Origin: a virus
Direction: 5' to 3' (one strand)
Length of the DNA stretch: 64,000 nucleotides
Virus record (IMG/VR): IMGVR_UViG_3300013117_000027
The translations under genes were made by a program, and so were the position numbers. Shown here one piece after another: positions 1 through 40,478 of this stretch (its first letter is position 1; every line of letters starts with the position of its first letter). The notes beneath the pieces are model-generated. The model was given only the letters and a program-made list of their open reading frames with translations. It did no database searches and had not been told where the DNA came from.

Positions 1-86
1 TTTTGTGCATTGAATAAGACGTTCTTAGCTTTTGTTTCAACAGTCTTTGTTCCACGTGTTAGGTCAAATTTAATCTCGTTACTCAT
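1..86 (-). CDS. 5' part of a leftward hypothetical gene (MSNEIKFDLTRGTKTVETKAKNVLFNAQ...), runs off the window
   Basis: ATG at 86-84 on the minus strand, AGGAG SD at 97-93, frame open to base 1. Confidence 0.7.
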   Translation of the reverse strand, partial: MSNEIKFDLTRGTKTVETKAKNVLFNAQ

Positions 87-165
87 ACTATACTCCTACG
101 TATATGTTTAAGTGAAATCTTGAGTGCCGTTCATCGACACCAAGTGCATTTCACAGATTTAACTA

Positions 166-194
166 TTGACATTTGTATGTGAATGTGGTATATT
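166..194 (+). promoter_or_regulatory. sigma70/sigmaA-type promoter
   Basis: TTGACA-N17-TATATT with extended -10 TG. Confidence 0.75.
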
Positions 195-265
195 ATAACA
201 GGGAGGGTTTAAATGATAGAATGATCTTCATTATAACCTCTGTATTTATATGTTTAAAATAGTTA

Positions 266-294
266 TTGACTTCTTTGTGCAAATGTTGTATATT
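266..294 (+). promoter_or_regulatory. sigma70/sigmaA-type promoter for the HTH gene
   Basis: TTGACT-N17-TATATT, exactly 100 bp after the first promoter. Confidence 0.75.
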
Positions 295-323
295 ATATGT
301 ATATTTAACCAAAGGAAAATGAT

Positions 324-548
324 ATGCTTGATATAAATAATGATACTATATTTGATACTCGATTGTCTGCTGATGCTTTCAGATTACTATGTTGTTACTA
401 TAGTCTTCCTGATGGTACTCCTCTTAACTGGGCCAGTCTTAGAAAGTATGGAAAACAAGCTGGACTATCTAATACAGCTGTTGGAAAAGCCATGACTTTA
501 TTAAGACGTTACGGTTATTTAGAGATAGATAAAAAGTCGATGAGGTAG
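324..548 (+). CDS. Small winged-HTH DNA-binding protein resembling the N-terminus of phage replication-initiator proteins
   Basis: INNDTIFDTRLSADAFRLLCCYYSLPD...LSNTAVGKAMTLLRRYGYL pattern; AAGGA SD upstream. Confidence 0.55.
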   Translation: MLDINNDTIFDTRLSADAFRLLCCYYSLPDGTPLNWASLRKYGKQAGLSNTAVGKAMTLLRRYGYLEIDKKSMR

Positions 549-568
549 ATAAAAAGTCGATGAGGTAG
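526..568 (+). repeat. Perfect 20-bp tandem duplication TAGATAAAAAGTCGATGAGG x2
   Basis: 526-545 and 546-565 are identical. Confidence 0.95.
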
Positions 569-822
569 TATACTAGTAATGTAACGAAGTGGTTTAAAAC
601 CCATTATTTTCCTTAAAGATGAGAAAATGAAATGAGAAGTAGTTACCGGAGTAGGACAACGTTACAGGTACCCATGTACTTGGTCTAATGTAGAGACAAA
701 AGTAAGAGTTTGATGATTTCTTCTCTTACGAGGCATTGGAGGTGATTTAACTTCAATCGAGAGAATGAAAGTTCTTGGTCTATGCTTCAGGTGAGAACAC
801 CTCATCGGCTACGTGATAGAGA

Positions 823-939
823 TTTTGAGGGGCTGTATTCCACAGTAGCTTTGTTAATCAACAAAGTTATCAAAATTAAATTTTTGAGGGACTGTATTCC
901 ACAGTGGCTTTGTTAATTAACAGAGTTATCAAAAATTAA
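823..939 (+). repeat. Two ~58-bp imperfect tandem repeats, each able to fold as a 3-way junction
   Basis: 823-879 and 882-939: TTTTGA..[G/A]CTGT-ATTCC-ACAGT..GCTTTGTT-AAT[C/T]-AACA[A/G]AGT..TCAAAA. Confidence 0.9.
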
Positions 940-1027
940 GATGGCTTTAGTGGCCCATGCTCCCTCTATTTTTTCTATAAAAAAATCATTATTGCGGTGT
1001 TCTTTTAATGAGACACAACTTCTTTTC

Positions 1028-1164
1028 GAGCGTATCTTCTACGCGATCAAATAATTTCATATATATTGATACTAGTAATGAATCATACCAACACTTTGTG
1101 TTAATCTAACATATACATAAATAACTACTTCTTACTGTTCTTTTACGAGTTATCCCCTTAACGA
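1028..1164 (+). repeat. Two GA-closed hairpins in a shared TTCTTTT(A)CGAG...CGATC context
   Basis: GA-GCGTA-TCTTC-TACGC-GA at 1028-1046; GA-GTTA-TCCCCT-TAAC-GA at 1147-1164. Confidence 0.7.
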
Positions 1165-1451
1165 TCCAACAAACACTAAACATACAATAACGTATACACT
1201 AAGAAACAGATTGAATATCGCTTAGACGCTAGCATTATGAGTACAACATTCATCTATCTGTCTATCTTTAAGAAGTTTTAATAATGTATATGTAGATAAA
1301 CATCTAGTACTAATGTTGAACCTTCGGTAAAAGATTCAATCTTTAGCCACCCTGTCATCATTATACGTTGTCCGAAGGACATATAAAATAATTATCAATC
1401 ATATATTTTAAATAATATATAATAAAGAACACTCATTAAGGGATTCTTCAA

Positions 1452-1528
1452 GCATGAGCTTGCGAATGCATATAAAGTCGATGAAGCGAAGCGAATCAAT
1501 ACTAACCGTGAAATGCTTCAGCATGAAC
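1452..1528 (+). repeat. Array of 3 GA-closed mini-hairpins, 28-bp period
   Basis: GCATGAGCTTGCGAATGC (1452), GATGAAGCGAAGCGAATC (1480), GTGAAATGCTTCAGCATGAAC (1508). Confidence 0.8.
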
Positions 1529-1543
1529 TTTTTTATTTAACTC

Positions 1544-1571
1544 TTGACTTTTCTAAGTAATGAGGTATACT
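1544..1571 (+). promoter_or_regulatory. sigma70-type promoter pointing antisense into the 1663-2961 gene and its terminator
   Basis: TTGACT-N16-TATACT with the same AATGAGG pre -10 motif as the promoters at 5779 and 9093. Confidence 0.6.
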
Positions 1572-1616
1572 TAGTTTATATGTTGAACCTTCGGTAAGAG
1601 TACCAAATGACCAAAT

Positions 1617-1657
1617 AAAAGGGAGAAGCAACCTCAACCCTTAGGCTACTCCTCCCT
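1617..1657 (-). terminator. Intrinsic terminator of the leftward 432-aa gene
   Basis: Minus strand AGGGAGGAGTAGCCT-loop-AGGTTGCTTCTCCCT-TTTATT just after the stop at 1663. Confidence 0.75.
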
Positions 1658-1662
1658 AAATC

Positions 1663-2961
1663 TTACATCCATACTGCAACATCATCACTTACAGTGTAAT
1701 CATCCAATTCTTCTTCTATTCCTAAGACCTCATTAATTTTATCTGTTAGTACTTCATCATCTATATCATCTATAGATATTTCTTCATATACCTGGATGTT
1801 TGTATCTTCTACTTTATGGAGATACTTACGTTCTTGCCAAGACTCTTCCTTAAGTTGCTTTCTTCCTAACTCATCTAACCTAAGTCTTAAAGCGTGTTTA
1901 ATAACATCTACTTCATAGTCTCCATCGTTTGTAGTATCTTCTAGAAGCTCTCTAACTTCGTCTTCTTTAAGCTTCCATATAGGTGTTCCATCTATCTTCC
2001 AGAAGTTTGTTACCCAATTGTGGTCTTCAGCTTCTGTAACGTCTTCTACTGGTTCATGCATTACCCATACTTTGTATTCGTGGTCTTCCCCAGTAGGCAC
2101 TGTTACTTCCTGATTCAATGCATTAAACCATACCCACTCTCTACTCTTATTACACTCTGATAAAGCTTCATATTCTGAAAACTCTCTGCCGGTTCCCTTC
2201 TCAACGTATATGTGATATGTTTTCTCGTGGGCTCCATCTAAACTTGATACATAATCAGTCTTACCTATTCTCCATGGAGATCTCTTAACTGCACATTCAT
2301 GTATTAACTTATCTTTAGTAGCAGTAAAAATAATTTGATTACTTCCACAACAAGGACACACTTTCTCAATTCCCTGAGTCTTTCTATCATCATATTCAGG
2401 GTCATAATGGTCTAAAGGTATCCAATGTGTACTATCTAAAGGTACTATGCTATCATTCCATACTTCTACTGTGTCTATCACCCTGTTACTATGTGTTACA
2501 CTATACCTATCTGCTTGATACTTCATGTACAAGTCACTTAGTACTCTATGCATTACCGGATACCATTTATTCTTCCTATCTTTGTTAGCATATAAGTGTG
2601 GCCTTTCATATAACTCAGGATTTCTTTGATGTAGAGCTTCTTCTTCCTGGAGTGCTTTCTTATTAGCTACAACATCTACCATGTTATGGATATTAGTCCA
2701 TTTACCTGTCTTGGTCATGAAACTTCCTGACTTATACTTACCATCTTCTCTCTTAGTCTGTTCCATCATTGGATTTACTATAAAAGGTATTCCGTTATAA
2801 TGGCCTATAAGTCCTGCCTTTGACATGGTTTCCCATATGTTTCCTACTTCTTGAGATTCTTTCTCATCTCTTATTCTTGTGTGTCTTCCTGCTTCTGATA
2901 CTAAACATGAATTGTCTGTACAGTTACTCATTGTTGTTTCTGACATTGATATTAAATTCAT
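1663..2961 (-). CDS. Hypothetical protein (~432 aa) with a CPCCG zinc-knuckle-like motif and an acidic C-terminus
   Basis: Long ORF; start moved to ATG 2961, which follows an AGGAG SD. Confidence 0.75.
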   Translation of the reverse strand: MNLISMSETTMSNCTDNSCLVSEAGRHTRIRDEKESQEVGNIWETMSKAGLIGHYNGIPFIVNPMMEQTKREDGKYKSGSFMTKTGKWTNIHNMVDVVANKKALQEEEALHQRNPELYERPHLYANKDRKNKWYPVMHRVLSDLYMKYQADRYSVTHSNRVIDTVEVWNDSIVPLDSTHWIPLDHYDPEYDDRKTQGIEKVCPCCGSNQIIFTATKDKLIHECAVKRSPWRIGKTDYVSSLDGAHEKTYHIYVEKGTGREFSEYEALSECNKSREWVWFNALNQEVTVPTGEDHEYKVWVMHEPVEDVTEAEDHNWVTNFWKIDGTPIWKLKEDEVRELLEDTTNDGDYEVDVIKHALRLRLDELGRKQLKEESWQERKYLHKVEDTNIQVYEEISIDDIDDEVLTDKINEVLGIEEELDDYTVSDDVAVWM

Positions 2962-3416
2962 AATAACTCCTATAAAAAATTGAAGACCAATCTTAAGTGC
3001 GTTATTGCACATTCGATATATTCACTTAGACTTTACTGTCTATGTCTTCGTTTAAAACCGCTCTCTGTCGGCTTGCTTCCGACTCACATTATGCGCGACT
3101 TGATGTCAAGATGTTAAATTGGGGGAACCGTGTTAGAGTTTGTTGTGGTCATACACGGTGAATGCGCTTAATGTCGACAGATAATGTTCTTATCCATTGA
3201 CCATTACTAACATCACATATGACCGCTACAAAGTCTTACATGGGGGAACCGATTTAATGTCTTTACATCAACCAAGGCATAATGTATATTTTGGGAAGCC
3301 GAGAGAGAGAGAAACAATCTCTCAACCTACCAATGTGTTCTGTATTGTTCACTATATATCGCCTTACGAATCTACCACCACATAAGCCCATATGGCGTAT
3401 GAATATATACATATAT

Positions 3417-3556
3417 GATGAACGAAGTGAATCGATTCTTATGGGTGAGAAACTTTAGTTTCGAACGTAGTTCGCATGAACGAAGTGAATGTATAATATA
3501 TCAATGAGGACTTCAGTCCGAATACATTCCTACAGTGGAGGAACTTTAGTTCCGAC
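3417..3556 (+). repeat. Array of 5 GA-closed mini-hairpins, ~28-32-bp period
   Basis: GATGAACGAAGTGAATC (3417), GTGAGAAACTTTAGTTTCGAAC (3445), GCATGAACGAAGTGAATGT (3474), ATGAGGACTTCAGTCCGAAT (3504), GGAGGAACTTTAGTTCCGAC (3537). Confidence 0.85.
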
Positions 3557-3604
3557 TATGCTTTGTCCGGGAGTCTCTACCTGTTAGTAGTGTCCGGGAG
3601 TTAT

Positions 3605-3627
3605 GAAGAAAGGGGCTATTAACCCCT
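3605..3627 (-). terminator. Intrinsic terminator for leftward genes
   Basis: Minus strand AGGGGTTAATAGCCCCT-TTCTTC. Confidence 0.6.
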
Positions 3628-3875
3628 AATCTTCTAACCGTAATACTGCTCTGATGATTCATAATAGTTATTACGTATTCCAACAGTGTAATATCTACAT
3701 TCAGAAGGCAGTATGGCATTACTCATTTAACTGTATCTGTAGTTGTTTCACTAACAGTTCGTCGTTTAACGCTTGGTCTTGATTGTGATGTTTAATTCTT
3801 GTTTCATTGTAATATTGTTCATTATAAACTCCTATAAAAGATTAAATATTTAGTTATATGTGATGATGGTCAATG

Positions 3876-4409
3876 TTACTCTACTACAACTCTATTGGTA
3901 TCACAGTACTTCATAAATGCAGCTACCTTATTCTTAAAGTTACAATCATTCACAGTTAGTACCTTAGTTGTTACTACGTATCCCTTATCTACCATAGCAC
4001 CACTGATGTTACCACATGATACACTCCAAGTATCCTTAGGTACTTTCCTATAGAACGCTTTAGTAAGCGGGTTATTATATACCATGATATGTCCATATAG
4101 TCCACATGTACCACTAGGTTCTAACATTACTATTGTACACCTCATATCTACTACTTTCTCTTGTGTGTGTACTTTAATGTCATCGTTCATTATACCATGT
4201 ACTGCATCCTTCCTTACTTTGTACACATATGGCTTATCGGCTAGTATGTACGTGTTAGCTTTATTGTATGGTACTAGTACACGCCACACATTATGCATCT
4301 TAGTAACTAGATATTTAATACCATCCTTGGATACTTCACGTCCGCTTCTTGTGTTGTATGTGTATGATATACTCTTACTGGTTGATGTTATAACTGTAAT
4401 AATAGACAT
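3876..4409 (-). CDS. Hypothetical protein (~177 aa)
   Basis: ORF; ATG 4409 follows an AGGAG SD. Confidence 0.7.
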   Translation of the reverse strand: MSIITVITSTSKSISYTYNTRSGREVSKDGIKYLVTKMHNVWRVLVPYNKANTYILADKPYVYKVRKDAVHGIMNDDIKVHTQEKVVDMRCTIVMLEPSGTCGLYGHIMVYNNPLTKAFYRKVPKDTWSVSCGNISGAMVDKGYVVTTKVLTVNDCNFKNKVAAFMKYCDTNRVVVE

Positions 4410-4477
4410 AGATACTCCTATGTTAAAAGGTTTAAATAATACATACATATATATGTGATTGATTTGGTTATGTTATA

Positions 4478-4654
4478 TTAATACGTACAGTACTCTACTA
4501 ATGCCCATATAGCAGTGGCAGCCACTACTAACTTAAGGTAAGCCATTGATACTTTACATCTCTTCTTATTAGCATACTTATACTTATATGTACGCTTAGT
4601 ACTGTTAAATCTACCATTCTGTGCTCTTGATACTACATTACTTCTTTTAGACAT
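4478..4654 (-). CDS. 58-aa basic protein with a C-terminal hydrophobic anchor (MSKRSNVVSR...LKLVVAATAIWALVEYCTY)
   Basis: Manually translated; AGGAGG SD upstream. Confidence 0.6.
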   Translation of the reverse strand: MSKRSNVVSRAQNGRFNSTKRTYKYKYANKKRCKVSMAYLKLVVAATAIWALVEYCTY

Positions 4655-4860
4655 ACTGTCCTCCTATAAAGTTTAAACATTAAAGTTACAAAACAAAAGA
4701 CCCCGTCACCGAGAAACGTTCTGTTTATTTTATCTATATTAATAATACCTAGTACACACAAACTATCCATTTTCTGTATTATGAAAAAAAAATCTTGTAA
4801 ATATCACTATAAGAAGATTTCGCGTATACTATAAAATAGTACAATAATGTACTCGAAACA

Positions 4861-5487
4861 ATGAAAAGAGGTATAATGCAAGTAGAACTTTACTGTAAAA
4901 AGTGTGGAAAAGAAGGCAATGAAAACTTTTGCACTTCTAAAGTAGCAAAGTATAAAAGACCTGGTCGGAAGTCTAACTATTGCAAAGAATGTCAGAAAGA
5001 AGTAGACAAAGTAAGAAGAGCATCAAAAGGCACTACCAATAAAGTTATAGAATGTAGACAATGTGGTGTTAAAGGTGGTAACGAGTTATTCACACCGTCT
5101 AGGTTTAAGTTAGCAAATAAGTATCTTACTTGTAATAAGTGTAGAAGAAAACATCAATCAAAAACAATTAACTATCGTATACGTAAAAATATGTCTAACC
5201 GTATAAAAAGTGCGTTTAAAAGGTATAAGGATCTAAAGAAAGACTACGGAACAATGCAGATGTATGTAGGATGCGATATGTACACATTCTTTAAACATAT
5301 AGAAGATCAATGGACTGAAGGTATGTCATGGGATAACTACGGTAAGTGGCACTTAGACCACATACGTCCTATAGCATCATTTGACCTTACAAAAGATGAA
5401 GAAGTAAAAGCTTGCTTTAACTATAAAAATGTACAACCATTGTGGGCAGAAGATAATCTCAAAAAAGGAGATAAATATGAAGAATAG
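4861..5487 (+). CDS. Free-standing HNH-type (homing) endonuclease with N-terminal CxxC zinc fingers
   Basis: GMSWDNYGKWHLDHIRPIASFDL...CFNYKNVQPLWAEDNLKKG; four CxxC motifs. Confidence 0.85.
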   Translation: MKRGIMQVELYCKKCGKEGNENFCTSKVAKYKRPGRKSNYCKECQKEVDKVRRASKGTTNKVIECRQCGVKGGNELFTPSRFKLANKYLTCNKCRRKHQSKTINYRIRKNMSNRIKSAFKRYKDLKKDYGTMQMYVGCDMYTFFKHIEDQWTEGMSWDNYGKWHLDHIRPIASFDLTKDEEVKACFNYKNVQPLWAEDNLKKGDKYEE

Positions 5488-5770
5488 CTTATACTCTTTA
5501 AAAGGTCCCACCTATAGAAAGAGAGGAAAAATGTTTATAGAAGAAGGACTATCGTTACTACAAGAATACGCTTACACAGAGCGTCCAGAAGACCTAGAAG
5601 AAGCTTTAAAAGTACTACGAGAAGGTTCAAGCTCTTTTTTGCCGTCAGTGGCCTCAGAGGAGCTTTCAGAGATACTAGAAGACCTAGAAGGGCATAGAGC
5701 GTCAGGAACTTTAGAGACATTTGTACAAGAAGTAATAGATCGCTTAGATGTTATAGCAAAAGAACTTTAA
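5477..5770 (+). CDS. Hypothetical protein
   Basis: ORF; ATG 5477 after an AAGGAG SD. Confidence 0.65.
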   Translation: MKNSLYSLKGPTYRKRGKMFIEEGLSLLQEYAYTERPEDLEEALKVLREGSSSFLPSVASEELSEILEDLEGHRASGTLETFVQEVIDRLDVIAKEL

Positions 5771-5778
5771 AAAAGGTC

Positions 5779-5807
5779 TTGACTTTCTTAGGCTAATGAG
5801 GTATATT
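5779..5807 (+). promoter_or_regulatory. sigma70-type promoter
   Basis: TTGACT-N17(..AATGAGG)-TATATT. Confidence 0.75.
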
Positions 5808-5989
5808 ATCAATGCCAGAGGGCTTTAAAAGAGATTAAACTTTGTAAGATAGCCTCCCATGGCTATCGGAAAGAACATTATGGAGAAAGATATACAAGAC
5901 ATAGACCTAAGGTATGCATTTGCTTTATCAATGTCAGGAGTATCAGTAAGCTTTCAAGAAGAGCGTGAGAAATACAAAGGAGGAACCAA

Positions 5990-6190
5990 TTGAAAACTAA
6001 CGGAAGGTTTTGCTCTGAGGTTTGTCCGTTTTTATATCCAAACGAATTTCAACAGAATCATATGGAAAAACCAACACAACAACATTGGTGTTCCAGATTC
6101 AACAAAAGGGTTATACACAACGGGAACCATCCAAAAATCGAGCGTTGCCAAATGTGCTTTGAGCATGAAACAAAGACAACGCCAGAGTAA
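5990..6190 (+). CDS. Small Cys-rich hypothetical protein
   Basis: TTG start after GGAGG; CxxxC...C...CxxC. Confidence 0.55.
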   Translation: MKTNGRFCSEVCPFLYPNEFQQNHMEKPTQQHWCSRFNKRVIHNGNHPKIERCQMCFEHETKTTPE

Positions 6191-6594
6191 GTGTTTACTG
6201 GCATTATAGGCATGGTCTTTGACCTTCGAGATATTCATTCTCCTGAAGAGTTCACGTGGATGGTCAGAGAAGCTTCTAGTTATCAATATTGTATCAAGTG
6301 GCAGGGTAAAGACCACGACGTAGGCCTAAAGCCTCAGAAGTTTTAAACCTTAAAGACATCAAGTCTAGTAACATATACGTAAAGAAAGGGACACAGGGAG
6401 GCTAGACATTCAGTGTATAAACGGACAGGAAATAGAAGTTTTTAAACTTCTAAAAGCCTATACTACTCTTTCAGATAGAGTTGAGCACCTAGAAAGAATA
6501 GAAGCTCAACAAAAAAAGATTATAGACGCTTTAGAGAAAGTTATAGAGTACGGGAGTGCCTAATCTTCAAGAGTGTCTAAGATAAGGAGACTAA

Positions 6595-8601
6595 ATGGCA
6601 TTATCATACACATCAGGTATTTACCTACACTTAGAAGGAACAGACGCACAGGTAACGTCTATACAACGTAATAGAGAGCTAGCCTGGACAACAGATCTAG
6701 AACTATTAAGGTACTTAGACTGTAACGGCCTTGCTCATTACATAGCCTCATCTGGTAGCGGAGGCAGTGGTCTGTGGGACAATCATAACGACGAAAGAAT
6801 AAGACCTAAGAATGGCAAGCAGACTTATGTTGCAGAAAGCTACCTCGCCGGTGTTGTCACAGACGAGACAAAGTTTGTACCTTTTAACACATTTGCTGAC
6901 TCAGCAAGTCTATACCTTAGTAACGGTAGCTCAGACAATCCTCTTTACTTACACGCGTATAGTAACGACGGTGCTGACGAGTTCATTATATCGAGGAACA
7001 CTCGAGGAAATGGTACATACCTTAACGATGGACTAGACAAAGCTATTAGGTACTATCAAAGTATGTCAAACTTAGACAGTATTCATGTGTTCGACACTGT
7101 TAACTCGTCTAACCCTGTGTCGTCCGGTGATGGGATATCTTGGGCTAATAGAGTCCTAATAACGTCTACGGCTACACACATGAACGCACTTAACAACGAT
7201 AGTAACTTTTATATCAAGAGTAACAATCCTGACGTATACTTAATGTATGGTAGTGGTGGCCAGTTAACAACAGGTGCACACGACGACATCTTATTCGAGA
7301 ATGTAAACATCGGTGGCGCTTTATACATGAGCGGCTACAGTACATTTGAGCTAGATGGCACACTAAGGTTCGTTCCTTCAGGCTGGTTCGAATTTAGAGA
7401 GTCAGGTGTATGGAAAACTTTGTCAGGCCAAGAGGTTGTTGGTGGATCTGATAAGCAGGTTCAGGTTAACAGTAATGGCTTCATAGCAGGATTTTCTGAC
7501 TTTGTATGGGATTATGATAATGATAGACTAGGGGTAAACACTTCTTCTCCTAGTGTTACCTTAGACGTAAACGGTGTTATTAGAGGTGCTAAGATAAGAA
7601 TTTGGGGTTGCAATATCATAGAAGATGCTACTGATGCAGAGGCTGACTTACAGTTAAATGCGACAGGATACAATGATGGTTCTTCACAGTACAGAAACTG
7701 TGGATGGTACGATGGAAAGCTTAATCGAGTAATGTTTTTAAAAGGTCAAACATCTTCTTTAAGATTAGGTGATAACCAAGAGCCTTCTCCAGGCGTTACT
7801 TTAGATGTTAACGGAACAATAGATAACGGATCACTAAGACTGTGGGGTAATAATTTTCTCGAAGCTGGATTTAACGGAGAAGCTACTCTTCAAGTTAATC
7901 TGTTTGGTTATGATGAAGGAGTTACTCAGTTTAGAAACACTAAGTTTGGTGACGGGAAAAATTCAGGTTTTGTGTTAATGAAAGGATCTACTAAGAGTAC
8001 TAGGTTCGGAGATGACTCTGACCCAAATTATACAGTAGATGTAGAAGGTGATTTTAAATCAGGATCTTCTTCTGATAACACTAATATAAGTATAAGCGGA
8101 CTAATAGATCCTGTTGGCACTCGCGCAGGTTTAAGTAGAGCAGAACTATCTGTTTCTGGTGGTACAACCGGAACAACAATTTCAGCTCTAAATACATGGA
8201 CAAAGTTAACAGGATGGACAAGTGCTTTAAATAACGGTAAACTTGTAGCTAATGTTACAGGTAATACCATAGATGTTGATAATGCAGGAATGTATAAAGT
8301 TCAAGCCGTAGTACATTATTACTACGATGCTCCAAGTGAAAGTAGAGCACAGTACGAATTCATGATAAGAGAAACATCTGGCACTCCTGTTGAGTATGGT
8401 AAAACATTGATGAGAGATTGGCATGAAGATGGTGATGGTGGAACAGATGAAGCGTACGGTCCACCTGTTGTATTAAGTGCTCATATACCTTGTACAGCTG
8501 GTGATGAACTAGAAGTAAGTGTTAAACAAATCTCTGGTACACTAGGAGTTGTACTAAATGGGGGCACGTTTACTGCAGAAAAAATCGGAGGATTAACATA
8601 G
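6595..8601 (+). CDS. Virion fibre/appendage-like protein with an internal ~80-aa duplication and a C-terminal beta-sandwich-like domain
   Basis: G/S/N/D-rich; RLGVNTSSPSVTLDVNG fibre-type motif; repeated WG.N..E....EA.LQ.N..GY..G..Q.RN; TAAGGAG SD. Confidence 0.65.
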   Translation: MALSYTSGIYLHLEGTDAQVTSIQRNRELAWTTDLELLRYLDCNGLAHYIASSGSGGSGLWDNHNDERIRPKNGKQTYVAESYLAGVVTDETKFVPFNTFADSASLYLSNGSSDNPLYLHAYSNDGADEFIISRNTRGNGTYLNDGLDKAIRYYQSMSNLDSIHVFDTVNSSNPVSSGDGISWANRVLITSTATHMNALNNDSNFYIKSNNPDVYLMYGSGGQLTTGAHDDILFENVNIGGALYMSGYSTFELDGTLRFVPSGWFEFRESGVWKTLSGQEVVGGSDKQVQVNSNGFIAGFSDFVWDYDNDRLGVNTSSPSVTLDVNGVIRGAKIRIWGCNIIEDATDAEADLQLNATGYNDGSSQYRNCGWYDGKLNRVMFLKGQTSSLRLGDNQEPSPGVTLDVNGTIDNGSLRLWGNNFLEAGFNGEATLQVNLFGYDEGVTQFRNTKFGDGKNSGFVLMKGSTKSTRFGDDSDPNYTVDVEGDFKSGSSSDNTNISISGLIDPVGTRAGLSRAELSVSGGTTGTTISALNTWTKLTGWTSALNNGKLVANVTGNTIDVDNAGMYKVQAVVHYYYDAPSESRAQYEFMIRETSGTPVEYGKTLMRDWHEDGDGGTDEAYGPPVVLSAHIPCTAGDELEVSVKQISGTLGVVLNGGTFTAEKIGGLT

Positions 8602-8629: not shown

Positions 8630-8806
8630 ATGGACTTAATGTCATTGATAACAGAAACTGTAGACAAAAGTATAGACTTACTAAGTCTAGTAAAACTAAT
8701 GAAACTAGAACTTATACGTATAGCTAACGAGAATACTGCATTGAAAGCAGAGATAGTACAGAAAGATCAAATTATTGAAAGACTAGGTAATGAAAGCGAC
8801 GAATAA
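8630..8806 (+). CDS. Small coiled-coil protein (58 aa)
   Basis: GAGGAG SD; manual translation MDLMSLITETVDKS... Confidence 0.6.
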   Translation: MDLMSLITETVDKSIDLLSLVKLMKLELIRIANENTALKAEIVQKDQIIERLGNESDE

Positions 8807-8939
8807 CGGTATTCAATTTAGTCCTCCTAAGAAGAAGGAGGCTGCACCTATGGTAGATCCACATAGTGTGTACCTTAAGACTATAATTCGGCAGAATGCA
8901 GAGATTATAGAACTCTTAAGAGAGATAAAGGATAAGTAA
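8790..8939 (+). CDS. Small hypothetical protein (49 aa)
   Basis: Overlaps the upstream gene; TAATG coupling to the next gene. Confidence 0.5.
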   Translation: MKATNNGIQFSPPKKKEAAPMVDPHSVYLKTIIRQNAEIIELLREIKDK

Positions 8940-9091
8940 TGAAAGAATTCCCTAAAGGACTAGACGGACTTTTTTCTCAACGCAAAGGTTCAGAAATAGA
9001 AAGAAAGACAGGAGGAAAATCCTGGAACTTCGATAAATGTTCTAACCATGGTAAGACAAAAAAAGCACCGATGAAAAAACGTAAAAAATAA
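8939..9091 (+). CDS. Small basic hypothetical protein (50 aa)
   Basis: TAATG-coupled start, Lys-rich. Confidence 0.5.
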   Translation: MKEFPKGLDGLFSQRKGSEIERKTGGKSWNFDKCSNHGKTKKAPMKKRKK

Positions 9092-9092
9092 C

Positions 9093-9121
9093 TTGACATT
9101 CTTAGACGAATGAGGTATATT
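9093..9121 (+). promoter_or_regulatory. sigma70-type promoter upstream of nrdJ
   Basis: TTGACA-N17(..AATGAGG)-TATATT. Confidence 0.8.
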
Positions 9122-9179
9122 ATACATGTCAAAAAGAGGCTCTCTTAGAAGAGCCTTTTCTATCTAAACAGGAGACTAA

Positions 9180-11535
9180 ATGAAAAAAAATAAAGAGACT
9201 TTATCAAGAGATATCTTATCAGATATAACTGTCTATGGAAAGTACGGAAAGTATCTTCCGTTAAAAAGGACAAGAGAACAATGGTCAGATATAACTTTAC
9301 GAAATATGGAGATGCATACAAAGAAGTATCCTCATTTAGCAAACGAAATAGCAGAAGCTTACTCGTACGTATTATCAAAGAATGTATTCCCTTCTATGAG
9401 AGCATTAGAAGATTCGACCCCTATTAAGACTAAGAAAGGATGGTCTACAGCTGGAAATATTAAGATTGGAGATGTATTATATTCTTCAGACGGATTAGAA
9501 ACAAATGTTATTGGTGTTCGTAAATTTAAGAATAAACAACTATTTAAAGTTAGTTTTTCGGACAAATCATCATTAACAGCATGTGATGAACATTTATGGA
9601 TTATATCTACTAATGATGATTTAAAAAATAATAAGACACGAGTTGTAGACACGAAATATTTAAGAACACATTTAAAGCAAGGTTCTAAAAATAATATAGT
9701 TATACATAATCCTAATCCTATTCATATGGAAGAAAAAAAGTTATATATTGATCCGTATATTTTAGGACATTGGTTAGGAGATGGATATTCAAATGGTGTT
9801 CAATTATCTACAAGTGTTGAAGATGCTGAATTTATTACAAATGAGTATAAACTTGCTGGATATAACACTATACCTTCTGATTCGTCAAATATATGGACAC
9901 ACTCTGTATATGGATTAAAATGTGATCTAACTAAGTATAATCTTATTAATAATAAACATATACCTGATGATTATATTAACTCTTCTATTAGACAACGATT
10001 AGATATTATACAAGGTTTGATGGACAGTGACGGTCATATTACACCAGATGGTAGATGTTGTTTTCATAATACTAACATGTCTATAATTAATGGGTTAAAA
10101 GAGATACTAGCTAGTTTAGGAATTAAATATACTAGTGTAACAGTTCCTAAAAAACGAGAACACCATAAAGATGCAATTGTTATATCATTCTTTACTACTT
10201 TACAAGTATCTAGAATGCCTAGAAAATCTAAACATATCAGATCAGTAATCACAAATCCAAGAACACAAAGACGACATATTATAGATATAGAGTCTGTCGG
10301 AGTTGGTAATGCGTCTTGTTTTCATGTTGACTCACATGATCATAGTTTTCTTGCCGGAAAAAGAATGATAACAACACATAATAGTATGCAGTTCGGTGGA
10401 CTTCCTATAGAGTTGTCACCTAACAGAATGTTCAACTGCTATAAAAAATCTACAAGATTTATAACAAAAAACGGGGTATCTTCATTTGAAGACTTTGAAC
10501 ATGGAGATAAGATAATTGTTCCATCACATACTGGTAAGATGCAGAATGCTATAGTAAGATCATATGGTACGCAAACTTTTAATAAAGTTACTCTTGTAAG
10601 AGCAAAAGTTAAAAAAGAATTAGAAGTAACTTCTGATCATAAATGGCTACTAAGAGATGGTACAGAGACAACTAATCTTAAAAAAGGAGATGTGATCCTT
10701 GGTTCACCAAAAATATTTCAGAATTTTTCTTGGGTAGAAGCATCTCCAATGGAAAAATTATATTGGTGTTATGGATTCGTGTATGGTGATGGAACCAGGG
10801 TTACTTCTGGTAATAATAAGTATTCTATGGTAAGGTTATGCGGAGATGACTTTAAGTACTTACCTAGATTTAAAGAGATGGGCTTTAAATCATCAGAACC
10901 TAATAGTTGCAATGGTGATACGATAGTGTATACAGGGAAGTATCAAAAGACATCTCCAAACCCAGATATAGATGATCATAATATGATAAAAGCATTTGTT
11001 GTTGGTTATTTAGACGCAGACGGTTCAAAAAATCCAGATTGGTATATAAATAATGATCTTAGTCCATATAAATCTATCCAATCATCTGAAAAAGATCACA
11101 TAAAGTTTATAGAACAATGTTTTGAGTCTGTAGGGTTTTATATAACATCAGAAAAAGATTTAACTGGTCAGAAAACTAATTACGGGACGAGACCTTTTAC
11201 AAAGACATTTAGATTAAGTACAAAAGTTGGAACAACTAATATAAATAATCATTGGGTAGTAGAATCGATAGTTCCATCCATAAGTAAAGATACAGCATGG
11301 TGTCTCGAAGTAGAAGAAGATCATAGTTTTATCTTATCCGGAGGTATAGTGACAGGTAACTGTAGCACATTAGCCTGTGATAATATAGCATCCTTTAATG
11401 AAGCTATGTTTTTACTACTAGGAGGATCTGGCGTTGGTGTAAGTGTACAAAAGCACCATGTTGAAGAGTTGCCAGAATTAACAGGACCAAAGAAACGACA
11501 ACGAAGGTACTTGGTATCAGACTCAATCGAAGGAT
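9180..11535 (+). CDS. nrdJ: Class II (adenosylcobalamin) ribonucleotide reductase, exon 1 (contains two inteins)
   Basis: REQWSDITLRN, VFPSMR|SMQFGG, MFN|CS, MFLLLGGSGVGVSV, DSIEG(W) motifs of monomeric RTPR-type enzymes. Confidence 0.9.
9402..10382 (+). mobile_element. Intein 1 of NrdJ (327 aa), Ala-initiated class 3 intein with LAGLIDADG endonuclease
   Basis: Starts ALEDSTPI, block B ACDEHLW, block F ASCFHVD, ends ITTHN|S; LGHWLGDG and QGLMDSDG. Confidence 0.9.
10437..11360 (+). mobile_element. Intein 2 of NrdJ (308 aa) with LAGLIDADG endonuclease, inserted before the active-site Cys
   Basis: Starts CYKKSTRF, TSDHKW, YGFVYGDG/GYLDADG, ends IVTGN|C. Confidence 0.9.
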
Positions 11536-26522: not shown

Positions 26523-27208
26523 ATGAGTAAGATAAGTACGATACAAGGAATGGTAGATTTTCCTTTAAGAGATTACCAGATAGAAATATTGAATAATCTA
26601 GAAGAACATAAAATACAGCATTCTATTTAGGTAGACGAATGAGTAAGTCAACATTAATATGTTTAGACGCTATATACAATGCTATGACAGCTAATAGACC
26701 TACAAGAATACTTATGTATACACAGGTAAGAATGAAGGATGCATTATTTGATAAGATTCTTGATTATAGTAGAGGTTTTGCTACACGTATAAGAAATAGT
26801 GATGTTAAAGAGGTGTTCTATGGTAATAACGTTATTAGGGTAGAAGGTATTTATCGACACGGTAATCCAACAAGTGCGATTGGACAATCCGCAGATTATA
26901 TATACGTAGATGAGGCAGACTTTATTACTAATGACGCAATGGAGAATACTATATTACCGATATCAAGTACATCTATTAATTGTAGAGTATGTATGATATC
27001 CACAATGTCTGGAATATCTAATACATATTTTAAACGATGGATGACCGACAGAAACCTAACAAATGTATACAGTAATACATTTAATCATGTAAATACTGAA
27101 CACAGTGTATATGTAGAAAACGATGAACTAGAATGGGAGTACTTAGGTTACTCTTACTTAAAAGAAAATGTTTCTATTAGATGGCAAGGAAAAACACATG
27201 AAACATAA
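26523..27208 (+). pseudogene. Frameshifted, intein-free paralogue of the terminase ATPase domain (~228 aa if the frame is repaired)
   Basis: LRDYQIEIL (Q motif) in one frame; GRRMSKS (Walker A-like), ADYIYVDEADFI (Walker B) and MIST in the -1 frame. Confidence 0.8.
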
Positions 27209-30200
27209 TACAGAACAATCAGAATGGTTCGCTGAAGTATGCGGAGATCCAGCGTTGTGGGCAGAGACATTCTTACGAGATCCTACTAACCCTCAAGAAG
27301 CTTTAAGTCTTAGATCATATCAACGAGAGATCTTAGAAGAGTCAAGAAACTATAAGTACATGGTCTTGAGGTACGGCAGGCGCATGGGAAAGTGTAGTAA
27401 GTATAGTGATATCACGCAGTTACACGATGGAACTAGGTTAACTATTCAAGAATTATGGGAAAGATACAACAACGGTGAAGATTTAAGGTTAATGCAACTC
27501 GAGAAAGACTTAAGTATAACTTCTTCTATGCCTATCTTAATGGAAGACAATGGTAAGAAAAAGACTTTTGAAGTAAAGACTAAGAGTGGTAGAAAGATTA
27601 ATGTTACCGAGAATCATCCTTTGTTAAGGATAGATGGTTGGCAACCTATTGCAGATCTTACGGTAGGAGATCAGATACTTGTCCCTTCTAAGGTAGACTA
27701 CGAAACTACCAAAGAGATAGACGATAGGCTTGTTAAGTTCTTAGGATACTTACTAGGCGATGGCATGATTACGTCTAGAATAGAACTAATAAATAAAGAT
27801 ATAAACATTATTAATGAGTTCGAACAATCCTCTAAATACTTTGATATTAATACAAGACATTGGTTAGAACGAGGATGTTACTATTCTAGAGTTGTACGTA
27901 AAGGTACAACTAATAATGAAGCTATAGACTATCTTAGAGAGTTAGGCTTGTTTGGTACTAACTCACATACAAAGTTTGTTCCTAATGTAATATTCGAACT
28001 TTCTAAAGACCAACAAGCTTTGTTCTTATCAAGACTTTACGCTTGTGATGGATGGGCTTCTGTTTCAAAGTCTAACAGGAAGTCTGGGAATTGTGAGATA
28101 GGTTATTGTTCTGTATCAGAAGATCTTATATACGGTGTGTCTGATATATTAGTTCGATTTGGTATTAAACACTTTATAACAGAAAAAAATATAAAGTATA
28201 AAGGTACACTTAAAAAAGCATTTCAAATACTTATATGTACAAAGGAAGACATCACTACATTTATAAATGACATAGGTATCTTCTCAAAAGAAGAACAATG
28301 TAATAATGTTTTACATAATCTAAAAAATAGAAGTGATCTAAAGAATGGATACTTTTATCAAGTGCCAAAAGAAGCTATACATATATATGATATAAAAACG
28401 CCTCGTAAATATGAGATACGAAAAAATTACAATACATCTAAAGAAAAACTTCTCAGAGCAGCCAAAGATCAACGCATAGAAGACTTAGTTAATATATGTC
28501 ATAGTGATACTTACTTTGATGAGATAGTTTCTATAACATCTACTGGTAATAATCAAACTTACGCTATAGAAGTTCCTAGAACTCATAACTATATAGTAGG
28601 TAATGTTATAACTCATAACACTGTAGCTTTCTGTGCAGACGCTTTATGGTGGACGTGCGCTCAACCTTTAGCGAGACTGTACGACGAAAGTGGTACTAAG
28701 CAGGTACCTTTAAAAGTCCTCGTTCTCACTCCTATGGACTCACAGATTAAGTTAATATTCGATACACTACTAGAGCTATGCTCTGATTCGCCTTTTATAC
28801 AAGAGTTAAATCCTAAGATAAGAAGATCAGACGTGAACGAGATATCATTTTCTAATGGAAGCGTTATCAAAGGTATGACTATAGGTATATCTTCTGCTAA
28901 CAAAGGAACATCTTGTCGTGGACAAAATGCTGACTATATATTTTTAGATGAGTGTGACTATATACCTAGAGAGATAATGGAAGAATCTATTCTACCTATT
29001 TCTAATACTAATCCTGATTGTAAGATAAGAGCTTGTTCTACTCCATCAGGTAAACGTGACCTTTACTTCGAATGGTGTTTCACTAAAGGTAATAAAGTTA
29101 ACACATCTAACGGATTCATTAACATAGAAGATATTAGACCTGGAGATAAAGTGTTCGGTGAAGATGGAGAAGAAGAGTTTGTTGTTAGACGTTATAAACA
29201 ACCATATAAAGGTCAAGTATATTCCGTTGATACTTCTGTTGGTAAGTTTGAATGTACTCCTAATCACGAAATTAAGACGTTCGAAGGTTTTAAAAGATGC
29301 GAAGATATAACTAAAAAAGATTATATAGCTATTCCTAAAGAGTCATATTCTAAAGAGAGAATTATTATAGATCCAAAAGTTTACTATAATGAATTTGATA
29401 AAGAAAGATGTAAAAACTTTAAAAGATATAAAGAGATTGGTTGTAAGACAACAGCAGCAAAAGAGATATATGGATCATCGTCGATGAGACGAATACTATT
29501 AAAATACGAGAATAATCAACGAGAGTATAGTGATCTATGGCCTATAGATAAACGACGACGAGATAATATTATGCGTGCTCAGAAGTTTCTCGATAACATA
29601 TATACAATAGATAGTAAGAAACTATATAGATTTCTAGGATATTATGTTGCTGAAGGAAATATACTAAAAGATTTCTCTGGAAATAGACACTACTATGCCG
29701 GTATTCAGCTAACATTTAATAGTAATGAGAAAGACTATATTAATGAGGTTATAGATACTTCAACGTGTTTGTTTCCTGATGCCAAAATAAGTCAAACCAA
29801 GGATAGAACAGATAATTCAACATCTATTCTTATATACTCGTCTTGGATATCTTATGCGTTCATAGAACTATGTGGAGAATATTCTAAGTATAAACGTATA
29901 AATCCTTCGTTATTATATCATGAGAACACTAAGTGTCTACTCGAGACAGCCATACGTGGAGATGGAACAGGCAGTATAGATACTCATTGGACGTATGTGT
30001 CAAAATCTGAATCTTTGATTAATCAACTTTTATCAATAGCGTATAGATTTGGTATGCCTGTTGGTAAATATTATAACGCAGCGTCTGACTCATATCAGTT
30101 AGGAAGAATATCTAGATTTGTTAGACACGAAGATGATACATACTTTATCAAGGTTAGAGATATAAAAGTTAGAGAATATGATGATTATGTTTATAATTTA

Positions 30201-31421
30201 GAAACTAATAGGACACACACATATAATGTTGAGTTTATGTGTACTCACAATTGTACAAAGGCTGACGAACTAGGTTGGTGGCATAGACATTATCCTTCAT
30301 GGCACGAAGATAACCCTAACTGGCTTTCTATCGACGAATGTCTTAGACAAGGGAGACCTAAACATGAGAGTACAGAGTTTCAGTACAGATCTGTTATGTC
30401 TACAGAAGCATATAATCGTGAGTTCGGTGCAGAGTTCGGTGAAGAGAATCAAGGTGTTTATAAACATGAGTTATTAGATCGATCTATGGTACGGTATTGT
30501 AAAGAATACTTGTCACATAATACAGATGTATTCGATCCTGGGTTTCCTCAAAATCCTCATAACTTATACGTTATAGGTGTTGACTGGAACACTTACAAGA
30601 ATGGCGGACAGGTCGTTATGATAGAGTATTGTAGAGAACCTACAATAGTTAACTACTTTGACGACGAGAAAGGTGAAGATGTTTACATAGACTTCACTGG
30701 TAAGTTCAGACTCTTTTATAGAAAAGGTGTTAAGTCTAAACAGGCTACTCAACGTGAGACAAGAAAAGAGATCATAAGACTTTTAAAGAACTATAAAGTT
30801 GATCACGTATACGTTGACTATGGAGCTGGTGATACTAATATAGAAGAACTTACACATTACGGTAAAGATCATCCAGCACTTAACATAACTCAAAAACTTC
30901 ATGTTGTAGACTCAGGTTCTAATATAGAACACTATGATCCCGTCCTAAAACAAAAAGTTAAGAAGAGAGCTAAGTCGATGATGATTAATACAAGTGTGGT
31001 ATCTTTAGAAGAAGGCAGACTTGTACTTCCTAAAGAAGAAGATTCTAATCATAGATTAGTGTCTCAGATGCGCGGTTACGTTATTAAGAGTACTACCATG
31101 AAAGGCGACTTTACATATGAAGGTGAAGACCACGTACTAGATGCATTTAATCTAGCTATATGGGGATTCCATCATCAGTATAGTCTTCTACTAACAAGTA
31201 ACTATGATAACAAAGTAAGATTCATGGCAAATCCTCTACTAGATAGAGCACCTGTACGACAACAAAAACCTCAGAGTCCTATACTAAGTGATTCAATGAC
31301 GGTACTTAGGGATCCCGAGTTACCAGTTGTTAAAGATGGACCAAAAAAGAGACAATTTAATCTTCCTTCGTGGGGTAAGCGATCGGTTGGTCTACAAAAA
31401 GGTTTTAGGAGACAGTTTTAA
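27198..31421 (+). CDS. terL: Terminase large subunit (1407-aa precursor, ~606 aa after removing two inteins)
   Basis: LRSYQ, GRRMGK|T Walker A, IFLDE Walker B, CSTP, IGVDWN nuclease Asp, DHVLDA. Confidence 0.95.
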   Translation: MKHNTEQSEWFAEVCGDPALWAETFLRDPTNPQEALSLRSYQREILEESRNYKYMVLRYGRRMGKCSKYSDITQLHDGTRLTIQELWERYNNGEDLRLMQLEKDLSITSSMPILMEDNGKKKTFEVKTKSGRKINVTENHPLLRIDGWQPIADLTVGDQILVPSKVDYETTKEIDDRLVKFLGYLLGDGMITSRIELINKDINIINEFEQSSKYFDINTRHWLERGCYYSRVVRKGTTNNEAIDYLRELGLFGTNSHTKFVPNVIFELSKDQQALFLSRLYACDGWASVSKSNRKSGNCEIGYCSVSEDLIYGVSDILVRFGIKHFITEKNIKYKGTLKKAFQILICTKEDITTFINDIGIFSKEEQCNNVLHNLKNRSDLKNGYFYQVPKEAIHIYDIKTPRKYEIRKNYNTSKEKLLRAAKDQRIEDLVNICHSDTYFDEIVSITSTGNNQTYAIEVPRTHNYIVGNVITHNTVAFCADALWWTCAQPLARLYDESGTKQVPLKVLVLTPMDSQIKLIFDTLLELCSDSPFIQELNPKIRRSDVNEISFSNGSVIKGMTIGISSANKGTSCRGQNADYIFLDECDYIPREIMEESILPISNTNPDCKIRACSTPSGKRDLYFEWCFTKGNKVNTSNGFINIEDIRPGDKVFGEDGEEEFVVRRYKQPYKGQVYSVDTSVGKFECTPNHEIKTFEGFKRCEDITKKDYIAIPKESYSKERIIIDPKVYYNEFDKERCKNFKRYKEIGCKTTAAKEIYGSSSMRRILLKYENNQREYSDLWPIDKRRRDNIMRAQKFLDNIYTIDSKKLYRFLGYYVAEGNILKDFSGNRHYYAGIQLTFNSNEKDYINEVIDTSTCLFPDAKISQTKDRTDNSTSILIYSSWISYAFIELCGEYSKYKRINPSLLYHENTKCLLETAIRGDGTGSIDTHWTYVSKSESLINQLLSIAYRFGMPVGKYYNAASDSYQLGRISRFVRHEDDTYFIKVRDIKVREYDDYVYNLETNRTHTYNVEFMCTHNCTKADELGWWHRHYPSWHEDNPNWLSIDECLRQGRPKHESTEFQYRSVMSTEAYNREFGAEFGEENQGVYKHELLDRSMVRYCKEYLSHNTDVFDPGFPQNPHNLYVIGVDWNTYKNGGQVVMIEYCREPTIVNYFDDEKGEDVYIDFTGKFRLFYRKGVKSKQATQRETRKEIIRLLKNYKVDHVYVDYGAGDTNIEELTHYGKDHPALNITQKLHVVDSGSNIEHYDPVLKQKVKKRAKSMMINTSVVSLEEGRLVLPKEEDSNHRLVSQMRGYVIKSTTMKGDFTYEGEDHVLDAFNLAIWGFHHQYSLLLTSNYDNKVRFMANPLLDRAPVRQQKPQSPILSDSMTVLRDPELPVVKDGPKKRQFNLPSWGKRSVGLQKGFRRQF
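27393..28619 (+). mobile_element. TerL intein 1 (409 aa, LAGLIDADG) in the Walker A motif
   Basis: GK|CSKYSD...TENHP...LGYLLGDG...SRLYACDG...VITHN|T. Confidence 0.95.
29076..30251 (+). mobile_element. TerL intein 2 (392 aa, LAGLIDADG)
   Basis: FEW|CFTKGN...TPNH...LGYYVAEG...AIRGDG...CTHN|C. Confidence 0.95.
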
Positions 31422-40386: not shown

Positions 40387-40478
40387 TTGTCTTATTACTT
40401 ATGATCTAAAGTTACTATACTAATTCATTAGGTGCTCTACACCTATATACGAAGTATACTATAAACATTGGAGATAAT

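Follow-up and report, generated by a model that had tools for sequence, protein, structure and literature searches.

A selection-maintained, strand-asymmetric array of GA-clamped mini-hairpins in a non-coding region of an uncultured contractile-tailed phage

Five short hairpins on the + strand of an uncultured contractile-tailed phage form a strand-asymmetric array that is maintained by selection. We consider this firmly established, and the same holds for the assignment of the commonest unit, type A, to a near-universal class of hairpin caps. The array lies within the window, by which we mean the whole stretch of 64,000 nucleotides that was analysed; it covers part of the phage genome and encodes portal, head, sheath and terminase-like genes. 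The original prediction had proposed a strand-specific structural signal at this place, which our results support together with its maintenance by selection. Our preferred reading of its role, put forward tentatively, is that the array may be a DNA-level, strand-specific folding signal that would keep a non-coding control region open or free of SSB, in the manner of an origin or entry site. The additions made here are a context rule for the GA clamp, a test for wobble pairs, an antisense bias in viral loci, a lineage-specific second unit (type B) and the covariation between two phages.

All five originally predicted units were recovered (Table 1), and in each of them outer stem, GA, inner stem and loop are followed by inner stem, GA and outer stem. 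From A1 through B1, A2 and B2 to B3 the units start 28, 30, 29 and 33 nt apart, and neighbours are separated by gaps of 7-12 nt in arrays of 5-8 units. The stems comprise 2-5 bp, the GA clamp and a further 1-3 bp, and the loops are 4 nt long in three of the five units. Two types can be distinguished: type A reads GA-AC-GAA-GT-GA, and type B carries an AC-TTYA-GT apex. We found a C.G-closed GNA triloop in A1 and A2, in a mini-hairpin whose 5' arm is shared with the 3' end of B1 (3462-3474), in two hairpins further upstream (1369-1381 and 1480-1497) and in most type A units of the related contig L227. A few units deviate from this apex, with AAA loops or T.A closure. Across the window and L227, 17 of the 18 units have a T before the first GA, an A after the second and an inner stem that begins with a purine. 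A repeat search linked only two 36-nt stretches at 75% identity, and the units differ in the sequence as well as the length of their stems.

Table 1. Positions of the hairpins, of neighbouring elements and of carrier loci in other contigs
Feature	Contig	Positions	Strand	Description
Hairpin A1	window	3417-3433	+	GAT/GA/AC-GAA-GT/GA/ATC; type A cap
Hairpin B1	window	3445-3466	+	GT/GA/5-bp stem, TTTA loop/GA/AC; type B
Mini-hairpin	window	3462-3474	+	overlapping alternative; 5-bp stem, C.G-closed GTA (GNA-class) triloop
Hairpin A2	window	3475-3491	+	CAT/GA/AC-GAA-GT/GA/ATG; type A cap
Hairpin B2	window	3504-3523	+	AT/GA/4-bp stem, TTCA loop/GA/AT; type B
Hairpin B3	window	3537-3556	+	G/GA/5-bp stem, TTTA loop/GA/C; type B
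Cluster 1 (array 1)	window	1452-1528	+	three hairpins of the same grammar: 1452-1469, 1480-1497, 1508-1528
Lone hairpin	window	1369-1381	+	5-bp stem, GAA triloop (AAA in L227); ahead of cluster 1
Imperfect palindrome	window	3075-3330		~250 nt, conserved; adjoins the array on its 5' side (+ strand sense)
Putative promoter	window	3262-3290	+	sigma-70-like (TTTACA, 17 nt, TATATT); points at the array; identical in L227
Repeated word	window	3565-3601	+	10-nt word GTCCGGGAGT; two direct copies between array and terminator (three in L227)
Terminator-like hairpin	window	3611-3627	-	intrinsic type; ends leftward transcript of gene 3876-4448; conserved in L227
Capped pair	L126	9033-9244		T4-like phage
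Capped pair	L193	1830-2470		T4-like phage
Capped pair	L216	3650-4510		T4-like phage
Capped pair	L168	2700-4100		T4-like phage
Tandem cap array	L368	1200-1760		6 to >15 copies, 32-35 nt units, one cap each
Tandem cap array	L406	1-240		6 to >15 copies, 32-35 nt units, one cap each
Tandem cap array	L011	1800-2010		6 to >15 copies, 32-35 nt units, one cap each

In order to quantify the clustering we used a strict descriptor (outer stem of at least 2 bp, GA, inner stem of 2-6 bp, loop of 3-4 nt, GA), which recovers four of the five units and misses B3 because its outer stem is only 1 bp long. The comparison with shuffled sequence that the original prediction had called for showed that the + strand total in the 64 kb is at background (7 matches vs 5 +/- 2.2 in dinucleotide shuffles), but that four hairpins within 150 nt occurred in none of 200 shuffles; the shuffle maximum was three, reached once. 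When TC, AG, CT, AA or GG was substituted for GA in the strict scan, the + strand showed no cluster. Furthermore the window holds five C-TTYA-G hairpins with stems of at least 4 bp, all of them on the + strand and four of them inside the two arrays.

The second array, cluster 1, and the mini-hairpin overlapping B1 are parts of one system with the array at 3417-3556. The last hairpin of cluster 1 (1508-1528) is followed by a T6 run and then by a promoter at 1544-1571. Several side observations were made in the same part of the window. A 21-nt word is repeated at 1313-1333 and 1580-1600, just past -10-like boxes; it can be read as a 5-codon mini-ORF, and its minus strand has a 3-bp hairpin with a GAA triloop. 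A 58-nt tandem duplicate of 90% identity spans 823-939, an exact 20-nt duplicate (529-568) overlaps the stop of a 74-aa HTH-like gene, and a word related to these duplicates leads into the hairpin at 1480-1497. Elsewhere, a lone 5-bp hairpin with a GAA triloop is located at 40446-40458 (+), in the gap after the head-protein-like gene 38989-40326.

We compared the array with its counterpart in a relative. Close phage relatives were found neither by blastn of the phage collection, nor via the 449-aa and 190-aa neighbour proteins in IMG/VR, nor among GTDB genomes. The sole relative found is the metagenome contig L227, which encodes a homologue of the 449-aa protein at 57% identity and carries both arrays in synteny on the corresponding strand. 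Its array 2 has eight hairpins (6648-6870) compared to five in the window and its array 1 has seven (9300-9504, minus strand) compared to three, so that entire hairpins have been gained or lost between the two phages. In L227 the 3-bp outer stem of A1 is replaced by a different 4-bp stem (GCAT/ATGC) and its loop is AAA. The outer stem of B1 changed from GT/AC to AT/AT and the middle A-T pair of its inner stem to T-A; the inner pairs of A2 underwent a double change from AC/GT to AT/AT, one G-C pair in the inner stem of B3 became T-A, and in array 1 GAT/ATC became GGT/ACC, again a double change. B2 is unchanged (6682-6701, minus strand). All changed homologous stems are thus altered on both sides, without wobble intermediates. 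Aligning nine type B hairpins on their loops gave a similar picture: 36 of 36 cells are paired, nine cells show two-sided changes and none a one-sided change. The covariation score was 0.69 compared to 0.16 in shuffles, it was matched by none of 500 shuffles, and all slid controls collapsed. Constant in these nine hairpins are the two sub-loop pairs (A-T and C-G) and the clamp-adjacent T..A. The claim that the units conserve structure and not sequence therefore stands, as does the expectation of covariation in a relative. The GA/GA mismatch, said to be invariant, proved nearly but not strictly so: in the L227 homologue of B3 it is replaced by GT/GC, which gives G-C and T.G pairs, the sole clamp replacement. 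These comparisons show that selection keeps each hairpin foldable while sequence and copy number drift.

The same changes bear on the possibility that the hairpins are duplex operators, in which each inverted repeat binds a dimeric repressor and the type B cores correspond to GAAC-N4-GTTC boxes. Such a core is present in B3, and the mini-hairpin overlapping B1 resembles a Cheo-type box with the wrong spacing. However, half-sites change jointly to stay complementary without conserving their sequence, neither stem length nor loop size is constant, and the conserved parts are the mismatched GA dinucleotides, whose arrangement in a DNA duplex is asymmetric. We regard this explanation as extremely improbable. 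LexA Cheo boxes in particular were rejected, as the spacing is wrong and the half-sites covary. Coding sequence was also rejected: a 30-codon frame across A1-A2 is broken by indels in L227.

The array is located in a non-coding gap of ~900 nt between the leftward genes 1663-2961/3012 and 3876-4448. As originally stated, the + strand is the template of both. The alignment of the first gene's protein with the L227 homologue suggests that its true start lies near 2961. For the 449-aa neighbour protein we found no functional lead in Pfam, PHROG, PDB or Atlas, and no tRNA or tmRNA genes were found. We tried GC skew as an origin marker, but it merely tracks gene direction. Elsewhere in the window, a giant ORF in the tape-measure slot (53369-64000) is interrupted by four LAGLIDADG-type inteins, and its PDB matches are intein endonucleases only; the terminase-like ORF 27168-31421 contains two Hint/intein regions.

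The gap itself contains several further elements. The palindrome next to the array shows 90% identity to L227 over the aligned positions, compared to 69% at the nucleotide level for the adjacent gene. Within it lie promoter-like sites arranged back to back, a G-rich 11-mer in three direct copies (3119, 3240 and 3292) and a symmetric GGGAA/GGGAA purine loop, which favours the + strand as the GA clamps do. With its palindrome, promoter-like sites, word repeats and conserved terminator the array region looks like a dense control region and not like a spacer. The promoter-like site at 3262-3290, 120 nt upstream of array 2, belongs weakly to a family of + strand promoters in this phage, whose other members lie at 165, 265, 1543, 5778 and 9092, all on the + strand. 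Both arrays share their strand with every recognisable strong promoter of the phage. The strong promoters on the array strand, the conserved promoter-like site upstream of array 2 and the T6 run after array 1 make transcription of the GA strand likely.

Such transcription raises the question of an RNA-level function. Starting at the promoter-like site, the host polymerase could produce a non-coding + strand RNA of ~330 nt that ends near the hairpin at 3609-3630, with the five hairpins as its working part. They could titrate an RNA-binding protein at several sites, as a decoy or sponge, or they could halt + transcripts and 3' exonucleases ahead of antisense entry into the leftward genes. The upstream site, which belongs to a promoter family and is conserved in L227, is in line with this, and so is the position of array 1 at the end of the unit transcribed from the promoters at 165 and 265, with a T-tailed last hairpin. 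The copy number differs between the relatives, as it does for sponge RNAs. We consider an RNA-level function, taken as a whole, a serious but somewhat less likely alternative, for reasons that emerge from the wider distribution and the chemistry of the hairpins.

Hundreds of contigs from viruses, bacteria and archaea, unrelated to one another, carry the type A cap. Single 15-mer matches in IMG/VR are at the level expected by chance for the size of the collection, and we therefore used only multi-copy loci. There are 114 IMG/VR stretches with two type A cores within 8-38 nt. Most of them are SSU5-like phage-plasmids of enterobacteria, in which two capped hairpins lie just upstream of an RNase H gene, on its template strand; the others are a mix of unrelated contigs, giant-virus bins and T4-like marine phages among them. 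The latter phages have a pair of capped hairpins inside a non-coding gap of 0.6-1.4 kb between uvsW and gp55, and a second pair is often found on the opposite strand ~200 nt away. This gap, which in L168 contains several iteron families, may be a candidate origin region. A variant of the cap with G-C sub-loop pairs occurs in more than 117 stretches, of which 99 differ in context. The A-T/C-G variant occurs in more than 120 bacterial and archaeal contigs of many phyla, where it often sits at the end of the contig or in tandem arrays with a unit length of 32-35 nt. The three tandem arrays in Table 1 belong to a Bacteroidota MAG (L368), an actinobacterial MAG (L406) and a viral contig (L011). Of the first 91 distinct cap instances, 69 are flanked by two or more complementary pairs, compared to ~14% expected by chance; the flanking stems vary in sequence and can be as long as 10 bp. 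Type B is not a universal unit: a pattern made up of its apex and the clamp gave 93 distinct matches, of which 7 have complementary inner pairs where 5.8 were expected by chance, and this type is specific to the lineage of the window phage and L227.

As a separate observation, the SSU5-like phage-plasmids carry a structured element of ~150 nt (L226 3501-3712, corresponding to SSU5 79016-79227) that is 94-99% conserved among them and whose outer helix encloses the two capped hairpins; it carries no annotation in the records examined.

The tandem arrays, the many matches at contig ends and the gain or loss of whole hairpins between the two phages could also indicate palindromic mini-repeats of the REP/MITE kind, which would turn up, multiply and degenerate in non-coding DNA, have no dedicated phage function and act mainly as recombination or template-switch points at cassette borders, a role that has been proposed for PeSL cassettes. 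The content of the region around array 1 fits this suggestion, as the arrays flank one gene where the cassettes differ: an HTH gene and ~1 kb at array 1 are present in the window and absent from L227. In L227 an HNH endonuclease gene (8695-9225, minus) follows directly after array 1, where the window has the promoter and ~50 nt, which indicates gain or loss of a cassette at array 1. We nevertheless find an origin as mini-repeats quite unlikely. Copies within the genome are dissimilar and are hence not products of recent transposition, the compensatory changes show selection on each stem, the GA clamp and its Py/Pu context are kept across domains of life, and no transposase or RAYT-like gene was seen nearby.

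We used the large number of caps to study the chemistry of the motif. Sheared tandem G.A pairs require a Py-GA-Pu context. Across 378 distinct caps the pair beside the GA clamp is C.G in 197 cases, T.A in 85, G.C in 23 and A.T in 3; thus 282 of the 308 paired cases show the Py-GA..GA-Pu context and 26 the Pu..Py arrangement. The data agree with the tandem sheared G.A pairs and C-GNA-G triloops named in the original prediction, to which the Py-GA..GA-Pu rule is an addition. Structured RNAs are typically rich in G.U pairs and poor in A.C. At the internal stem positions of 647 caps we counted 410 Watson-Crick pairs, 12 G.T and 15 A.C, so that there is no RNA-style tolerance of G.U among these hundreds of independent stems. 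A TTTA loop with an internal T.A pair is a classical DNA mini-loop, and neither GNA-class triloops nor TTYA loops are favoured in RNA. The GNA triloop mini-hairpin is likewise a known DNA motif, which resists SSB and nucleases (PMC13037366). Where C.G closes the loop its sequence is GAA, GTA, GGA or AAA, and the remaining loops are TTYA. These loop types and the missing wobble pairs favour the DNA over the RNA reading.

Other results bear on the RNA-level function in the same direction. Of the caps whose stem has 3 bp or more, 8% are followed by at least five Ts in the next 8 nt compared to 4% in the mirror control, which is no enrichment of T tracts. Neither the window nor five carrier loci gave an Rfam match at the gathering score, and with the threshold relaxed to E = 5 nothing relevant was found in positions 1-6700 of the window. 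Nor do bacteria, archaea and giant viruses share a candidate binding protein. As RNA, the array region folds no better than shuffles do (z = -0.07), and nearest-neighbour models assign type A 0 kcal/mol on either strand; as these models lack the motifs, thermodynamic folding is uninformative for the region and for single units alike, and the claimed stability rests on the literature and not on calculation.

The orientation of the caps relative to genes points both ways. In viral loci the flanks of the cap are purine-poor in 83 cases vs 41 (p = 2e-4), i.e. the GA strand is antisense at a ratio of ~2:1, and with a crude ORF caller the 5'-side gene is on the strand opposite to GA in 62 cases vs 28. 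In cellular genomes the same crude caller places the cap mostly sense and 3' of genes (43 vs 20), as would be expected of hairpins at RNA 3' ends. There is no orientation rule relative to transcription of the kind expected for an mRNA element, which counts in favour of the DNA reading.

Several named RNA elements and repeat classes were also tried and rejected. For RNA of the K-turn, K-loop or box C/D kind the 3-nt bulge is missing and the outer stems abut GA on both sides. An intrinsic terminator is contradicted by the T6 run, which follows only 1508-1528, and by the lack of T-tract enrichment. A hammerhead core would need the CUGA box, which is missing, the strand order is wrong for sarcin-ricin or loop E, and a CsrA-type sponge is contradicted by the position of GGA, which is in the stems and not in the loops. 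The units are not near-identical, which speaks against a CRISPR repeat, Racr or type III antitoxin array. The original prediction had called the array undescribed. This does not hold for the GNA mini-hairpin core, which is already known (PMC13037366), but the GA-clamped cap and its arrays have no Rfam family, we found no open paper on either, and the cap's literal 11-mer turned up in primers only.

Another option of the original prediction was that the hairpins are promoters in the manner of phage N4, where a virion-delivered polymerase would read the template-strand hairpins and transcribe leftwards into gene 1663-2961. The hairpins are indeed on the template strand and upstream of a leftward gene, the C-GNA-G apex resembles that of N4 P1 and P2, and the usual opposite strand of the viral 5'-side gene would suit such a promoter. 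Like the N4 early promoters, the array combines a template-strand hairpin and a C-GAA/GGA-G apex with one strand whose fold is much the stabler. However, the proposal fails on stem length, on the -17..+1 flank, on the distance to the start and on the packing of the units. Promoters of the N4 vRNAP have a Watson-Crick stem of 5-7 bp and a 3-nt loop centred at -11, a conserved stretch from -17 to +1, one hairpin each and a fixed start 8 nt away, and the array departs from all of these. The flanks of its units are conserved neither between units nor between phages, the type B loops are 4 nt long, and N4 has no GA clamp. With units 7-12 nt apart, starts would fall inside the next hairpin, and the gene lies ~455 nt away here and at variable distances in other loci (median ~165 nt). 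The only characterised polymerase fused to a tape-measure protein uses AT-rich linear promoters (PMC10770324), the SSU5-like and T4-like carriers have no virion polymerase, and a T7-like polymerase was not detected within the 64-kb window. Promoters of this kind are therefore very unlikely.

We return to the preferred reading, a folding signal at the level of DNA. Two tandem sheared G.A pairs clamping a short stem with a GNA cap or a T..A-closed TTYA cap mean that only the + strand folds well. The hairpins would act whenever this strand is unpaired, by supercoil-driven extrusion or during replication or recombination. Once folded they would be expected to resist SSB and nucleases, and the complementary strand would be left single-stranded over ~140-190 nt. 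The array region may in this way form a polar, easily opened landmark in the non-coding control region, possibly an origin-like or entry site at which priming or helicase loading takes place or a polymerase gains access (compare G4 oric, ssiA/ssiB and the N4 early promoters). The presence of the cap in SSU5-like, T4-like, giant-virus, bacterial and archaeal DNA argues for a physical property of DNA and not for one RNA-binding partner. Counting against the DNA reading are the likely transcription of the GA strand, the sense and 3' bias in cellular genomes and the stability of G.A pairs in RNA, as tandem sheared G.A pairs are stable there too. Both arrays are also confined to one strand, unlike a bidirectional origin. 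A bolder proposal is that viruses and cells make general use of GA-clamped mini-hairpins as a polar structural signal in DNA, a class without a name so far, and that the arrays of this phage would be a supercoil-extruded, one-sided unwinding element where the replisome or a tail-delivered polymerase enters as infection begins; in this extended form we judge it unlikely.

To our knowledge functional DNA hairpins in double-stranded genomes are limited to few cases, namely N4 promoters, ssi signals, attC sites and single-strand origins. The exact design described here, with its GNA cap, two sheared G.A pairs, Py/Pu rule and absence of wobble pairs, recurs with unrelated stems in hundreds of contigs. 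Should it act at the DNA level, many uncultured viruses would have their origins, entry sites or strand polarity marked by it, and such sites could be located by a simple sequence rule. If it acts at the RNA level, it would be a new and widespread hairpin module. Whichever applies, the array packs five variants into 140 nt, a compact test object for which L227 offers natural compensatory mutants.

Among known systems, REP/BIME elements share with the arrays the short imperfect palindromes, the intergenic clusters and the variable number. REPs, however, have a sequence shared within each genome, alternating orientation and a GTAG head, none of which was seen in the array. The PeSL (promoter-early stem-loop) cassettes of T4-type phages consist of one G/C-run stem-loop acting as an RNA terminator (PMC2839356), fused to a sigma-70-like promoter just ahead of an ORFan. 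As in PeSL, the hairpins are joined to sigma-70-like promoters in non-coding joints of differing cassettes, and array 1 with the promoter at 1544-1571 resembles such a cassette, with the HNH gene there in L227. In contrast to PeSL each array comprises 3-8 mini-hairpins that carry purine-purine clamps and lack U tracts, and array 2 has its promoter upstream and no gene downstream.

GNA mini-hairpins are found in phage replication and transcription start regions (review PMC13037366; the GCGNAGC class of Hirao and co-workers). The array units have the C.G-closed GNA triloop with a sheared G.A pair in common with this class. They differ from it in that their sub-loop pairs are mostly A-T and C-G and in that two tandem G.A pairs, a variable outer stem and the arrangement in arrays are added. 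The comparison also extends to the priming signals of the G4-type origin and of RSF1010, i.e. ssiA and ssiB, which are used by the RepB' primase. Unlike these signals, the array is located in a double-stranded tailed-phage genome with all units on one strand, and we identified neither a primase start site nor an initiator gene nor iterons beside it. It shares with them the strand-specific hairpins with a mini-hairpin cap, the ~140 nt of folded sequence and the putative exclusion of SSB, and the opposite-strand capped pairs of the T4-like phages resemble the layout of ssiA and ssiB.
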